NCBI GenBank assembly: GCA_963782525.1
Contig: CAWAKC010000001.1
Coordinates: 160,001-224,000, forward strand
From: Candidatus Bathyarchaeota archaeon
GTDB taxonomy: Archaea > Thermoproteota > Bathyarchaeia > Bathyarchaeales > Bathycorpusculaceae
Direction of reading: 5' to 3'
Length of the DNA: 64,000 bases
In this document: positions 16,618-60,876 of the stretch, in pieces
How positions within the stretch are numbered: position 1 is the first letter of the stretch
Layout: each line of letters starts with the position of its first letter
Program-made: the position numbers and the translations under genes
The notes under the pieces: generated by a model
The model's database searches: none
Told to the model about the DNA's origin: nothing
The model's input: the letters and a program-made list of their open reading frames with translations, nothing else

Positions 16618-16712
16618 AGTCATACATTAATTTGCTAATTGCAACTGCCGCAAGAAAAAAGCCGAGCACAAAAATAAGCTGTCCAATAGAAGGAAGAGGA
16701 AATACCGAGCGT

Positions 16713-16910
16713 GAAAGAAGAAGACACTGCTTCCCCATAACACTGTCTTCGTCTACTTGCTAAGAGAAGAAGAAAAAATTGGTGTTTTTCGGGAAAAAAT
16801 GATTTTTCTTCTTTTAACTTATGCAAATTTCCTATTGTGAGGCAAAAGTTAACTGGTAAAAGAAGAAGAGCAAAATTTTTTCCAACTTCTTCTTCTTTCA
16901 ACTTAGGTTC
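16713..16910. repeat. Cluster of three GAA/TTC-arm palindromes (REP/BIME-like)
   Basis: GAAAGAAGAAGACA...TGTCTTCGTCTAC; AAGAAGAAAAA...TTTTTCTTCTT; AAGAAGAAG...CTTCTTCTT; 25-nt identity with 57963-57987. Confidence 0.7.
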
Positions 16911-16962
16911 ATCCGGTAGACTGAAAAGCCTCAAAGAACATTGTTGGTAATTATTCTGGGCC

Positions 16963-56835: not shown

Positions 56836-57408
56836 TTAGTGTTTTTGCTTATCAGCATTGCTGTTGGCTTTGGTTTTTTTTGGCAAAGTTTCCGCTAAAC
56901 CTTCAGCTTCATTTTTTAAGTAAAGTTGACGATTGTCTACGTCTTTTTCTTTGTAACGACGCATTGTCGAAGCATTCGTTTTCACTCGTTCAAAACGTTT
57001 TTGACTGTTGAGTCGCTCTGCAAGTTTAACCACGTCATTTGGCTTGCTAAACTTCTCCACCGTGCCATCTTCACGTGTTCGCTCGACTTTTATGCAGTCG
57101 TCAACCATGCAGTTGAATACGCAGGCGCCACAGTAAACACACAAATCCTCCATGATGCCGACTTTGCCCGTGCCCCAATACAACGCGTTAGTTGGACAAG
57201 CCTTTAAGCATAATCTGCATTGTGCGCCGACACAAGTGAATTCATTTATGCTGATTTTGCCATCCTTGAAAAGCTCCTTAACCCCTGTTGGTTCAAGAAG
57301 TTCTTTGCGCCGCTGCCGCTTTTCAGCTTCTTCATCAACCTGTGCACTGCTTTCTTCTTCCATCAGCTCGTATACAGAAGGTGGTTTCGACGGCATTTTG
57401 ACAATCAC
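56836..57408 (-). CDS. 2x[4Fe-4S] ferredoxin-domain protein
   Basis: CVGAQCRLCLKACP and CVYCGACVFNC. Confidence 0.8.
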   Translation of the reverse strand: MIVKMPSKPPSVYELMEEESSAQVDEEAEKRQRRKELLEPTGVKELFKDGKISINEFTCVGAQCRLCLKACPTNALYWGTGKVGIMEDLCVYCGACVFNCMVDDCIKVERTREDGTVEKFSKPNDVVKLAERLNSQKRFERVKTNASTMRRYKEKDVDNRQLYLKNEAEGLAETLPKKTKANSNADKQKH

Positions 57409-57685
57409 AGGAAATGATTTGTTTTCAAAATAGGTTTATGAATTATAATTACTTATCCCATCAATTTTGGATTTATCATTCATATTTCTGAGGATTCCGA
57501 ACCGTTTAGGCTTTCGGTAGAAATGCAATATAAAAACGTTAAAAGTTGCTTCATCATACTTTGTCCAGCCAGTATCCATAGCGAGCGAATTTCGCCAGCT
57601 GTAGTTGCAGTAGTTTCCTTGAAAATCTTTCTTCCTGAACTCGGTAGATGTACGTATTTCTCAGAGCTGTTATCTTCTTTTCAAA

Positions 57686-58001
57686 TAGAAGAAGAAAAAC
57701 ACATTTCCTACAGAATTGCCGTCCTTCTTCTTTCAAATACACTACAAGCCCTCTTAGCTGAAAGAAGAAGACACAGAACTGCACACAGCCACTTTCTTCT
57801 TCTTTCAGAGAATAAAAGAAATCGGTTTTTCCCTAATAAAAATTTTTTATGCCATCAACTTGACTGAAAGAACAACAACACTGCACTGCCACTTGTTGTT
57901 GTTCTACCGATCAATGAAGCCAACCATTTAACGGGTAGAAGAAGAAGATTGAAAAATTTGCTCTTCTTCTTCTTTCAACTTAGGTTCCAGTCGAAAGAAC
58001 A
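57686..58001. repeat. Array of at least four triplet-arm palindromes plus a fifth interrupted by the IS (REP/BIME-like)
   Basis: CTGAAAGAAGAAGA/TCTTCTTCTTTCAG perfect 14-bp stem (57758-57808); GAAAGAACAACAA...TTGTTGTTCTACC (57866-57908); GGTAGAAGAAGAAGA...TCTTCTTCTTCTTTC (57934-57976). Confidence 0.8.
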
Positions 58002-58013
58002 CCTATGTGAAGT

Positions 58014-58197
58014 TTGACTATTTGGGTCTTTCTTCTATTCAATCTCTCCTAATTCCACGTCTATTCATTTCCTAGTTGACGACAAAGGCAAACACCTATC
58101 CGCCCACACCAAAGAGGCAATATGGCAACGCATTCAACCCTTCATCAATCAACAACACGTCCACAATCAAGGGACAGTTCTTTGCGGTGAAACACAT
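58014..58197 (-). ncRNA. Putative bridge/seek RNA in the 3' non-coding end of the IS
   Basis: Internal loop carrying AAAGAAC and TGTTGTT (matching the target flanks); second segment ATAGGTGTT and CGTCAAC (matching the element ends). Confidence 0.75.
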
Positions 58198-59187
58198 CTA
58201 AGGTTGATCATAAAACGGCCGCTTATTCTTAAGCACCGAAAAACAAACCACCAACAACTTCCTAGCAGCAGCCACCCTAGCGGTATTCTTCCCCTTCCTC
58301 CCAGCCAAACAACGATAAGAGCGGCTAATCCAAGTATCATACTTACTAACATGTGTTGAAGCGCACTCAATCATGATCCAACGCAGCCACCTACTACCCT
58401 CCTTAGTTATGTTTCCATGACGAACCATGCCTCCTGATTGATAAGTGGAAGGCACCAACCCAGCATAGCTGCAAAGCTTCTCAGCAAACGGAAAACGGCT
58501 AATATCGCCAATCTCACTCTTCAATAGAAGAGCCGAATAATAGCCAATCCCTGGAACAGTCATCAAAAGTTTAACATCTCCATCGACTTCAGCTTCACTC
58601 TTAAGCTCCTTAGACAACACCTTAATTTCTTCACTGAAAACATCGATAAGCCTCAAGTAAGATTCAACCGGATCCAAACCTAAGCCATGAAGCCAAACCA
58701 CCCCCGCCTTGGTCCACAAGCCATGATCCTCCGGCCACTTCAATCCTTGATAAGTCAGATAACTTTTGATTTTCACTCGCAGTCTAACTCTTTCCCTAAC
58801 TAGGAAAGCTCGTCTGCGAACCCTCTCTCGCAAAGCGCCTGTCTCCTCGTCAGGTACGTATGATAGTGGCAACCAATCCATCCTAAGCAGCTGTGCAATA
58901 GCTTTAGAATCCACGCGATCGCTTTTAATTTTAGCCTCAGCAATCAACTTAGTCTTCTTCGGATGAGAAACCACCGCGTCAAAGCCTTCTTTCTTTAGTT
59001 GGCGATAGAGTGATGCAACAGCTGTAGAAGACTCCATGGCGACTTTTCCAACTTTGTGCTGCGAGAGGTAAGAAGCTACTTTCTCATTCTCCATCCTTGC
59101 CTGATCTACAATCTTTCCTTCGGAGTTCAAAATAGTCGCATAAGTGCTATCCTTATGCACATCCAACCCACAAACCAAGGCGCTCAT
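58198..59187 (-). CDS. IS110-family DEDD recombinase/transposase
   Basis: GLDVHK, MES, KSDRVD (DEDD); PGIG, YAGLVP..QSGG catalytic Ser, ARKL. Confidence 0.96.
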   Translation of the reverse strand: MSALVCGLDVHKDSTYATILNSEGKIVDQARMENEKVASYLSQHKVGKVAMESSTAVASLYRQLKKEGFDAVVSHPKKTKLIAEAKIKSDRVDSKAIAQLLRMDWLPLSYVPDEETGALRERVRRRAFLVRERVRLRVKIKSYLTYQGLKWPEDHGLWTKAGVVWLHGLGLDPVESYLRLIDVFSEEIKVLSKELKSEAEVDGDVKLLMTVPGIGYYSALLLKSEIGDISRFPFAEKLCSYAGLVPSTYQSGGMVRHGNITKEGSRWLRWIMIECASTHVSKYDTWISRSYRCLAGRKGKNTARVAAARKLLVVCFSVLKNKRPFYDQP

Positions 59188-59412
59188 GATATGGCGTGAG
59201 CGCCCACGTCGTATAACACTTCCCATACCATCAACAACAAACAAAATTTTGACGTGCTGTTGTTCTACCACCAATCTCAGCAACCGACCATAAAGTGAAG
59301 ATAGGCCAAAAAAGGTAAACAGTTTCAGCTTAAACCAGCCATTTTATTCCCTGTGGGTTTAATAAATTGGCTTTAATTAGAGAAAAGCAAACTGTTTTGA
59401 AAGAGGACCCCC

Positions 59413-60876
59413 ATGAGCCAACCGCAAACACAAAACAAACCAAACCAAAGTTCTACGCCGCACAGCCGAATAATACTGGCAATTATTGTGCTTGGCACAC
59501 TAATGGGTTCCCTAGACAGCACCATAGTCCTCTTAGCATTTCCAACCATAAACGACAACCTCCACTCCGACCTCGCCACTTCAATTTGGATAATCTTGGC
59601 CTATCTGTTGGTGATTGCCGTTGCAACTACGCAGATGGGCAGAATTGGCGATATATATGGGCGAAGCAGAATATTCAACACAGGCTTCATAATCTTCACC
59701 GTCGGCTCAGTCCTTTGCGGATTCTCAACCCACATCTACCTGCTCATCGCCTTTAGGGTAGTTCAAGCCGCAGGCGGCGCCATCATGCAAGCAACCAGCG
59801 GAGCCATAATCGCCGATGTATTCCCGCCCCAAATCCGAGGCAGAGCATACGGCTACAACTCCTTAGGATTTACTGCAGGAGCGATGCTTGGAATAGTCTT
59901 TGGAGGAGTAATAACCACTTTCATCGGTTGGCAGTACATATTCTTCATAAACATTCCAATCGGCATAATCGCAACGGTGACCGGCTTCAAGTACATAAAA
60001 GACACCCATAAAGCGCCGTCGAAACTTAACCTGCCCGGCATGGGACTGCTCGCCGTAGCACTTGTGTTGTTGTCTTTGGGCTTGGTTAATTTTGCTGCGG
60101 AAGGAATCAGCACTACCAGCATCATCTTAGCCATCATTGGTGCTGCATTGATTCCGGTGTTCTTCTGGTATGATCGCCATCTCAAAAACTCGTTGATTGA
60201 CTATGAAGCCCTCAAAAACAAAATTTTACGAAACGCGATCCTCTCAGCCTTCTTCCTCAGCATAGGCTACTTCGCCGTAGTATTCCTAGTTATCATGTAC
60301 CTACAGGGCATTAGGGGACTGTCGCCGTTAGATGCTTCGCTTCTGCTCGTACCAGGGTATGTAGCGGGAAGTTTTCTGGGTCCAATCATGGGCAGACTCA
60401 GCGACAAATACGGCTCAAGAGACATAGCCACCATCGGCGTTTTCTTCTTAGCACTAGCCATCCTAGTTTACTTAACCATGAGTACAACCTCCCCGCTCTG
60501 GATTGTCCTATTAGCTTCAGCGATCTCAGGCTTAGGCACCTCAATGTTCTTCCCAGCCAACAACAGCGCAGTCATGGCAAACGCCCGCCAAGGCTCCTTT
60601 GGCAGCATCTCAGGATTGCTAAGAACTGTGCAGAACATCGGCTTGGTTGGAAGCTACGTCTTAGCCATATCGGTTGCAGCAGCGTCAGTTCCTAGGCAAG
60701 TGGCGTTTGAAGTCTTCATCGGAACATCCAGTCTCTCTGGAGGGGTAAGCACTGCGTTCTTGGGAGGCATACACAACGCATTCTACGCTTCCATAACCAT
60801 ACTGGTAATTGCAGCTGTGCTTTCGTATTTTAGGGGAAAAGAAGTCAGGAATCAGCCGACAAACCCTAAAACCTAA
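59413..60876 (+). CDS. MFS transporter, DHA2-like (14 TM)
   Basis: LDSTIV, GRIGDIYGR, FFINIPIG. Confidence 0.92.
   Translation: MSQPQTQNKPNQSSTPHSRIILAIIVLGTLMGSLDSTIVLLAFPTINDNLHSDLATSIWIILAYLLVIAVATTQMGRIGDIYGRSRIFNTGFIIFTVGSVLCGFSTHIYLLIAFRVVQAAGGAIMQATSGAIIADVFPPQIRGRAYGYNSLGFTAGAMLGIVFGGVITTFIGWQYIFFINIPIGIIATVTGFKYIKDTHKAPSKLNLPGMGLLAVALVLLSLGLVNFAAEGISTTSIILAIIGAALIPVFFWYDRHLKNSLIDYEALKNKILRNAILSAFFLSIGYFAVVFLVIMYLQGIRGLSPLDASLLLVPGYVAGSFLGPIMGRLSDKYGSRDIATIGVFFLALAILVYLTMSTTSPLWIVLLASAISGLGTSMFFPANNSAVMANARQGSFGSISGLLRTVQNIGLVGSYVLAISVAAASVPRQVAFEVFIGTSSLSGGVSTAFLGGIHNAFYASITILVIAAVLSYFRGKEVRNQPTNPKT

Follow-up and report, generated by a model that had tools for sequence, protein, structure and literature searches.

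A modular REP/BIME-like repeat family in Bathyarchaeia and a nested IS1111-type element predicted to be guided to its hairpin arms by a bridge RNA

Introduction

Bacterial repetitive extragenic palindromes (REPs), the bacterial interspersed mosaic elements (BIMEs) built from them, and the RNA-guided insertion sequences (ISs) of the IS110 family are the closest described counterparts of the locus analyzed here, an array of hairpins with GAA or AAC triplet stems that is interrupted by an IS110-family element in a soil archaeon of the Bathyarchaeia. The locus lies in a stretch of 64,000 nucleotides (C1:160001-224000, hereafter the window) of a 2.87-Mb genome in 12 contigs. In bacterial GTAG REPs the tag is conserved at >90% in most families, and in the accessible text of the same source GTAG and CGTC repeats are listed for bacterial phyla only (PMC3733652). 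For the IS1111 group of IS110 elements the described layout is a left end that is short, a right end that is long and harbors the bridge RNA, and subterminal inverted repeats (Durrant et al., PMC11208160). IS110 recombinases have also been described from archaea and are believed to have entered them on several occasions, according to a preprint (10.1101/2024.06.21.599552). Our literature searches returned no report of REP/BIME-like repeats in Bathyarchaeota or other archaea. Pneumococcal BOX elements consist of modules in fixed order with variable internal modules, form stem-loops, are intergenic and have no known transposase.

A sequence-only reading of the window had proposed an archaeal REP/BIME-like array that is targeted by an RNA-guided IS110 element. 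The core observation of that reading is confirmed here, as positions 57686-59269 are one copy of a modular array of approximately 390 bp. The hairpins are modules of this fixed-order composite, which has up to six stem-loops (M1 to M6), rather than free-standing REPs.

Results

The intact stem-loops were read from an inverted-repeat scan together with the sequence, while the decayed M3 is visible only by alignment with paralogues. In the following list, as in the text, C denotes contigs of the genome studied and G other genomes, G010 being that of a sister species.

57686-57734, plus strand: M1, GAA-stem hairpin with feet TAGAAG...CTTCTTTC, from the inverted-repeat scan and paralogue alignment
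57760-57806, plus strand: M2, GAA-stem hairpin, arms of 14 nt, 100% complementary
about 57809-57858, plus strand: M3, decayed, from alignment with the intact M3 of C11, C7, C1:176.7k and the G010 orthologue
57866-57908, plus strand: M4, AAC-stem hairpin GAAAGAAC...GTTCTACC, 21 nt, 81% complementary including the feet
57934-57976, plus strand: M5, GAA-stem hairpin in opposite orientation, GGTAGAAG...CTTCTTTC, 12 nt, 100% complementary
57977-57992, plus strand: conserved M5-M6 linker, with 1-2 base differences in the C2, C4, C10 and C11 paralogues and identical in the G010 orthologue
57993-58001, plus strand: first part of the M6 5' arm, ending in the core dinucleotide CA (58000-58001)
59232-59269, plus strand: remainder of M6, comprising the other CA (59232-59233), what is left of the 5' arm, then the loop and a 3' arm that ends in CTACC
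59270-59319, plus strand: conserved tail after M6, common to the C9 array and the G010 orthologue

Between a ferredoxin-like gene and a major facilitator superfamily (MFS) transporter gene, four stem-loops are intact, one unit is decayed and another is split. Each unit has GAAAG/CTTTC as one foot and nTAG/CTAn as the other; the two feet are complementary apart from 2 mismatched nt close to the stem base, and this lends the palindrome its direction. The direction alternates along the array, with GAAAG...CTACC in M4, GGTAG...CTTTC in M5 and again GAAAG...CTACC in M6, just as had been proposed for these consecutive units. M1 has a loop of 27 nt that contains the conserved TTCCTACAG motif, M2 carries GAAAG/CTTTC at both ends in the window copy and GAAAG...CTACC in most paralogues, and in M3 the stems are mutated and the loop is conserved. 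Of the five hairpins originally counted, the GAA or AAC triplet stems hold, except that the supposed fifth hairpin at 57993 is the M6 5' arm lying beside purine-rich DNA of the IS. The sequence that had been restored by removing the IS was one AAC triplet too short. Clean excision removes 1,232 bp, i.e. the IS plus one CA, and gives a product that agrees with the uninterrupted paralogues on C2, C10 and C11 and with the IS-free G010 locus. The tail after M6 matches C9:228685-228772 with 84% identity over 89 nt. A tail of this kind, about 50-90 nt long, is found at both loci as well as in the sister species, and the composite therefore reaches past its last hairpin.

The array belongs to a dispersed family, as the sequence-only reading had supposed, and this family is extragenic. 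The genome contains 84 strict GAA/AAC hairpins in comparison to 6, 3, 1, 6, 6, 2, 8, 6, 1 and 3 in ten first-order shuffles, and foot-specific patterns matched 32 times in the genome and not once in each of five shuffles. The 84 hairpins form 47 clusters, 40 of which lie outside crude open reading frames (ORFs), although such ORFs take up 80% of the genome. A six-module array on C11 has near end-to-end matches at the window locus and on C9 and partial matches at approximately 25 further loci. In an alignment of 13 arrays the order M1-M6 is fixed and linkers as well as loop types are conserved, with some copies missing modules; the feet alternate from M1 to M6 in the C11 reference array. Copy number well above that of shuffled DNA, together with polarity and linkers conserved at other loci, bears out the assumption of a repeat family. 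Stems measure 12-15 bp and consist of A/T-rich triplet runs, loops are variable with 13-27 nt and rich in A/T runs, and paralogous arrays are approximately 65-85% identical.

With regard to the feet, 29 polar units were found genome-wide, namely 11 of the GAAAG...CTA type and 18 of the nTAG/AGAG...CTTTC type. Two symmetric units have GAAAG/CTTTC at both ends and none has GTAG/CTAC at both, and one further foot-pattern match (GAAAG...CTCT) was left unclassed. An orientation tally with a looser pattern was discarded, because most of its 323 units were spurious. A GTAG foot of the bacterial REP kind is not supported as a general feature: the units are polar and GTAG is frequent, but no more than 13 of the 29 polar units have a strict GTAG/CTAC foot, and the rest read TTAG, ATAG, CTAG or AGAG. 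Of 50 units that were folded, 32 gave the better fold on the antisense strand and 17 on the sense strand, with one tie, and the G-U pair counts were 84 and 46; much of this is explained by the polar foot, and the units are related to one another. An Rfam E-value search of 57400-59500 gave three sub-threshold microRNA look-alikes on the hairpins only.

The array is interrupted within the 5' arm of M6 by the following element.

58002-59231, minus strand: IS110-family IS with IS1111-type layout, 1,230 bp, single full copy in the genome (BLAST)
58198-59190, minus strand: recombinase gene, 330 aa, with DEDD_Tnp_IS110 and Transposase_20 domains

The bounds of the IS were set at 58002-59231 because the IS-free G010 locus and the paralogues show the uninterrupted site. 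At the syntenic locus of G010, M6 is intact and without IS, the identity is 89-91% on both sides, and the alignments of the two sides have 4 nt in common at the junction; a BLAST search of the region against the genome also matched the flanks to contiguous sequence on C11, C2 and C10. The IS is flanked by CA on each side, where the uninterrupted site has a single CA. Insertion was scarless, without terminal inverted repeats and with only the core dinucleotide on both sides. The left end (upstream of the gene) comprises 43 nt and the right end (downstream) 196 nt, and a subterminal inverted repeat matches at approximately 11 of 13 positions when it is read from the ends conserved in relatives. 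The recombinase matched PF01548 (E 1.3e-20), PF02371 (E 1.2e-23) and the NCBIfam model NF033542 for IS110 family RNA-guided transposases, with 235.5 bits against a cut-off of 140. Judged by these sequence features, the element is a previously undescribed IS1111-type member of the IS110 family. Its earlier assignment to the RNA-guided IS110 elements is borne out by the domains, the NCBIfam model and the guides described below, which match the hairpin arm and co-vary with it.

Homologues of the IS were found in 22 of 81 genomes of the genus (E <= 1e-20), and further copies came from named contigs. Close relatives are located on contigs of Candidatus Bathyarchaeota or Bathyarchaeia; the nearest ones found outside Bathyarchaeia are from Patescibacteria, with 35-53% identity over the best-matching segment. 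These relatives, and a TFIIB gene adjoining one array of the family elsewhere in the genome, place the host among the archaea, as had been proposed from the sequence. At C3:437989-438062 there is a remnant resembling the left end and recombinase start of a related IS110-family element (81% over 75 nt), and it adjoins unrelated A/T-rich DNA. Among public sequencing runs, the best share of sampled words was 0.23 and none reached 0.5; four runs were examined as short assembled contigs, without strand or level. One contig from a DNA run (X1) joins 57999 to 59232 but skips 57736-57933, and may be a paralogous or foreign array instead of the empty allele. From an RNA library, contig X16 contains M5 and M6 without the IS, and further contigs span a portion of the IS right end but differ from it at many positions, RNA libraries being able to hold DNA.

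The 3' non-coding end of the IS encodes, as far as can be judged from sequence, a predicted bridge/seek RNA with a target and a donor loop.

58075-58192, minus strand: predicted bridge/seek RNA, conserved scaffold with variable guide windows
about 58176-58182 and 58150-58156, minus strand: target loop guides, around the inner hairpin 58158-58177
about 58118-58124 and 58093-58100, minus strand: donor loop segments, around a second inner hairpin

Read with the strand rules of IS621 guides, one 7-nt target guide has the same sequence as the DNA to the left of the insertion point, core included, and the other 7-nt target guide is the reverse complement of the DNA right of it. For the donor-loop pair there is a match to the IS right end plus core and a less clear one to the IS left end. 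When 15 right ends are aligned, two variable windows stand out in an otherwise invariant scaffold. In all 11 copies for which both flanks are available, the longest exact matches between guides and flanks sum to 10-15 nt, as compared to a mean of 5.56 and a maximum of 9 nt in 90 non-cognate pairings.

The guides and the flanks change together. There are three groups of guide 2 (GTTGTTG, CAGACTG and TTAGCGCG), and each stands beside a matching left flank. GTTGTTG combined with AAAGAAC, GAAGAAC or GTAGAAC is found where the flanks end in GTTGTTG and begin with TGTTCTTT, TGTTCTTC or TGTTCTA, CAGACTG combined with TTTTCACA beside the flanks ...AGACTG and TGTGAAAA, and TTAGCGCG combined with GTAGCGC beside ...TTAGCGCG and CGCGCTA. 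Within the GTTGTTG group, guide 1 tracks the foot of the hairpin, AAAGAAC occurring with TTCTTT and GAAGAAC with TTCTTC. The switch of the core from TG to CG, in the TTAGCGCG group, coincides exactly with a switch of the donor guide from ATAGGTG to ATAGGCG.

The choice of target was assessed in the GTTGTTG lineage, to whose guides the AAC-hairpin arms correspond. Five of its seven copies with both flanks are inserted at the same offset in an AAC-hairpin arm, which amounts to four independent sites and includes either arm. The 13-nt cognate site has nine intact copies in the genome, eight of them in hairpin arms; one is the M4 5' arm, an unoccupied exact site (57867-57879, minus strand) only 130 bp away from the IS. 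The other guide lineages occur in genomes with no AAC hairpins. At one IS copy (L022, G016:C5), the DNA just left of the IS resembles the 3' end of a tRNA gene, and the CAGACTG lineage may, from its sequence context, target a tRNA-adjacent site.

The repeats are restricted to a narrow range of relatives. The AAC-hairpin pattern was present in 48 of the 81 genomes of the genus with 1-53 copies, while a control with the reversed pattern gave none in 80 of 81. A class-wide sample contained it in 8 of 251 genomes, i.e. the genome studied, three of the 12 other members of the genus, three of six from a sister genus, and a single match in another family. Composites and copy numbers are lineage-specific within one Bathyarchaeia genus and its sister genus. 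The congener G053 has 53 near-uniform AAC hairpins of 32 nt with two loop types, which are part of a different composite of approximately 250 bp (at least 25 copies, 74-82% identity) that also includes a GAA hairpin and a conserved tail. The G053 composites are bordered on either side by short direct-repeat-like segments, and when G053 is compared with its relatives, synteny breaks at the composite. Another congener has M4-M6 at a locus where the genome studied has none, the flanks having diverged. Where loops of the window array differ from the G010 orthologue, e.g. the M4 loop, they resemble loops of paralogous units, sometimes in inverted form, which suggests exchange between copies.

The genomic surroundings of the arrays are heterogeneous. 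In the window, the array is located in a divergent promoter region between the two genes mentioned above, and a second, shorter array is present.

56836-57408, minus strand: ferredoxin-like gene, flanking the array on one side
59413-60876, plus strand: MFS transporter gene, flanking the array on the other side
16712-16947, plus strand (genome C1:176712-176947): second, shorter array, between convergent ORFs

Genes next to arrays elsewhere are mutually unrelated and encode PIN and RHH toxin-antitoxin proteins, an AAA ATPase, a PD-(D/E)XK protein, TFIIB, a CLC channel, beta-propeller proteins and a catalase. A comparison of array orientation with local GC skew (<=0.04) or gene-strand bias revealed no pattern; on contig C3 the 11 array loci are all oriented alike, and C7 and C10 hold both orientations. 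The segment C3:357000-395000 is densely occupied, with approximately 11 array loci among large beta-propeller (PQQ/NHL) proteins, a glycoside hydrolase, a catalase and a toxin-antitoxin pair. Its second half also contains other intergenic repeats of approximately 150-400 nt, which are 85-94% identical to several loci in the sister genome, and for the array-rich 19-kb stretch C3:376-395 kb no syntenic counterpart was found in that genome.

Discussion

We consider it likely that the locus is explained by two components, a modular non-autonomous repeat and an RNA-guided IS nested in its M6. With respect to the IS, it is very probable that insertion is guided by a bridge RNA and site-specific at GTTGT-TG-TTCTTT in hairpin arms. 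The DEDD/Ser recombinase would insert the circular IS at this sequence (IS orientation) in AAC-hairpin arms and would add no duplication beyond the shared core. The anatomy of the element, the empty site, and the matches between guides and flanks with their co-variation are observations of this analysis; the bridge RNA itself, the circle and the chemistry we infer from the work on IS621 and IS1111. With respect to the array, a non-autonomous repeat of this kind would spread and turn over by a trans-acting activity, as we infer, and by exchange between copies, and its stems would be kept uniform by exchange or selection. On balance, we regard it as somewhat probable that the arrays are mobile or amplifying. 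What bears on mobility is the presence or absence of an array at one orthologous locus and the lineage-specific bursts, no clean ends having been seen and no event caught in progress.

Several results weigh against this explanation or parts of it. It had been asked whether other copies of the IS occupy the same target position; this applies to the five related copies mentioned above, but two of the seven (L018 and L047) are inserted in non-hairpin DNA with a partial guide match, and another copy (L020) has one mismatch to its own guide. The IS is single-copy despite nine intact cognate sites. The co-variation is based on approximately three guide-2 groups and four guide-1 variants in relatives that are not independent of one another, and the right-hand donor guide is invariant, matching 4-5 nt in either of two registers. 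As regards the predicted RNA, the Rfam search of 57400-59500 placed no family on the IS right end, the single-sequence fold of that end was no better than shuffles (z = +0.89), and RNAalifold supported only the two inner hairpins, with a two-sided change in 1 of 18 pairs; the outer stems are our reading of the sequence. For the array, no candidate mobilizing enzyme was found, and no clean filled/empty pair with defined ends and no target duplication were encountered among the arrays compared. Copy numbers are low beside those of many bacterial REP families, and the 65-85% identity of the paralogues indicates that any spread is old or slow.

The main rival to a mobile repeat is a host-serving element. 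In this case the arrays would be structural or regulatory elements, such as RNA hairpins determining transcript ends or stability, insulators, or arrays of sites for a chromatin or RNA-binding protein, which are selected and copied by recombination. The best support for this comes from the comparison with the orthologous array of the sister species G010, in which the stems are conserved at 125/137 positions (91%) in comparison to 117/133 (88%) in the linkers, 372/424 (88%) in the flanks and 65/94 (69%) in the loops, so that the stems somewhat exceed neighboring intergenic DNA. The arrays are intergenic and under-represented between divergent genes (7 of 40 versus 406 of 1,357 background gaps), their loops are rich in A/T runs, and bacterial REPs are credited with such roles (PMC3733652). 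However, array direction is unrelated to that of the flanking genes, with 8 co-directional and 7 opposite cases in tandem contexts (counted by hand), and arrays are also found in divergent promoter regions. Half of the genus has no copy or one, and a range of 0-53 is ill-suited to a general cellular role; moreover, the lineage-specific bursts of near-uniform copies look like amplification. Taken together, we judge a host-serving role to be unlikely, though worth keeping in mind.

Somewhat less probable still is the derivation of the arrays, in the manner of MITEs (miniature transposable elements with inverted repeats), by deletion from an autonomous IS with its own ends and target duplication. 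The composite nature of the arrays with their conserved non-hairpin parts (linkers, M6 tail, and the direct-repeat-like segments in G053) would fit such an origin, and many archaeal MITEs are known according to a review (PMC10969869). Yet neither terminal inverted repeats nor target duplications were seen, and no copy encloses a transposase-like ORF. The sole ORF with arrays on both sides (C10:173594-174229) encodes a signal-anchored Asn/Thr-rich protein with no Pfam match. TnpB-type genes are present in 5 of 81 genomes, none of which is among those with at least six AAC hairpins, and in the 53-copy genome G053 no IS110-family recombinase was matched at E <= 1e-20.

According to the sequence-only reading, the hairpins would be true REPs of the GTAG super-family, mobilized by a REP-associated tyrosine transposase (RAYT/TnpA-REP, a Y1 HUH enzyme) encoded outside the window. 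The often GTAG-containing foot, the polar, alternating and clustered units reminiscent of BIMEs, and the existence of three Y1_Tnp matches in the genome speak for this. The Y1 genes, however, score as IS200/IS605 transposases (127 and 120.6 bits against a cut-off of 55), whereas with the RAYT model one of them reached 30 bits, the cut-off being 80, and for the other nothing was matched at E <= 1e-5; a whole-genome search with this model yielded no match over the cut-off. Two of the genes are located in identical copies of a 576-bp IS200-like element that consists of the Y1 gene only (C3:60075-60650 and C3:287737-288312; L001 and L002), and a third, different IS200-like copy is found at C7:224408-224767 (L003). 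The Y1 elements carry their own GC-rich subterminal hairpins, which are unrelated to the GAA/AAC repeats and have similar counterparts in the third copy. None of 16 Y1 loci from 15 genomes was flanked by GAA/AAC hairpins (approximately 1.5 kb on each side where the contig allows), so the search for a Y1 HUH gene enclosed by the palindromes came back empty. Among genomes with at least six AAC hairpins, 13 of 16, including the 53-copy genome, lack a Y1 match at E <= 1e-3, whereas such a match is present in 16 of the 33 genomes without any AAC hairpin (Spearman rho -0.21 across 81 genomes). In addition, only IS200-type Y1 proteins are reported from archaea in the consulted portion of a survey (PMC6006769). 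Since the Y1 genes are of the IS200 type and unlinked to the repeats, membership in the REP/RAYT system is rejected, and a RAYT acting from outside the window is highly improbable; the likeness to REPs in anatomy and in their use by IS110 elements stands.

That the hairpins are chance products of low-complexity purine-triplet DNA and the match to the IS target is a coincidence has a negligible probability, because, although GAA/AAC runs are simple sequence and the guide segments have only 7 nt each, the counts of hairpins and foot patterns far exceed those in shuffles, the reversed pattern is absent from nearly all genomes of the genus, linkers and loop types are conserved, and guide-flank matches change together in three lineages with cognate sums above the non-cognate maximum. 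Integron attC sites, which are targeted by IS1111 members and stand one at the 3' end of each short, co-oriented cassette beside an integrase, were also considered and rejected, as the units are in tandem without intervening genes and the neighboring genes are large and of mixed orientation; a search for an integrase was not part of this comparison.

Returning to the view of a mobile repeat with a nested IS, it is possible, although we propose this only tentatively, that the REP/BIME-like system of the Bathyarchaeia proliferates without an HUH/RAYT enzyme and that an imported bacterial-type RNA-guided IS has retargeted its guide to the repeats as a safe landing pad. If this were true, palindromic mosaic repeats would have arisen independently in archaea, with an enzyme class hitherto unconnected with repeats of this sort moving or copying them, and the IS would show, as a natural example from archaea, how a guide is retargeted to a repeat specific to its host. 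How such repeats originate and spread is a question reopened by an archaeal family that has REP anatomy, extends across a genus and lacks an HUH partner. Furthermore, the relatives of the IS form a natural series in which one bridge-RNA scaffold is combined with at least three target specificities, one of them tuned to both hairpin arms, and this series is directly usable for testing the programmability of an archaeal IS1111-type system. It also accounts for the position of the IS, a repeated extragenic stem being a harmless site.

Compared with known repeats, the Bathyarchaeia family resembles bacterial REPs and BIMEs in that these are short, extragenic, imperfect palindromes, polar by an unpaired or mismatched foot that is often GTAG (PMC3733652), occur in E. 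coli and Pseudomonas as clustered, alternating units with copy numbers that vary among close relatives (PMC3733652, PMC2817692), and are targeted by IS110-family elements (PMC11208160). It differs from them by its archaeal host, by A/T-rich triplet stems of 12-15 bp with long, variable loops of 13-27 nt, by the fixed-order composite of approximately 390 bp, by a GTAG foot in 13 of 29 units, and by the lack of a detected RAYT or Y1 link. With the CGTC-tagged REPs (Di Nocera et al. 2013) it has in common that a palindromic family exists without a cognate HUH gene, even where the same genome may contain IS200-type genes (PMC3733652). Those repeats, as characterized in the same source, have stems of 8-9 bp, loops of 4-5 nt and another tag and are rarely clustered, in contrast to the long-looped and mostly clustered Bathyarchaeia units (PMC3733652). 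The likeness to BOX elements is one of modular anatomy without sequence relation. The family is an archaeal, modular, long-looped variant of REP/BIME-like repeats without an HUH partner, in which the REP anatomy itself is known.

The IS, as described here from its sequence, differs from IS621, ISPpu9, ISPpu10 and other IS110/IS1111 elements by its Bathyarchaeia lineage, a core of TG or CG, the A/T-rich triplet stem as target, a site in both hairpin arms, and an end to which no Rfam model matches. It shares with these elements, which insert in REPs or attC hairpins guided by a bridge RNA or seekRNA, the recombinase with DEDD and Ser domains, the lack of terminal inverted repeats and the duplication of the core only, a non-coding end with two loops matching target and donor and guides that are reprogrammed between lineages, and the preference for repeated palindromes as targets (PMC11208160, PMC11187229, PMC12288879, PMC8450116).

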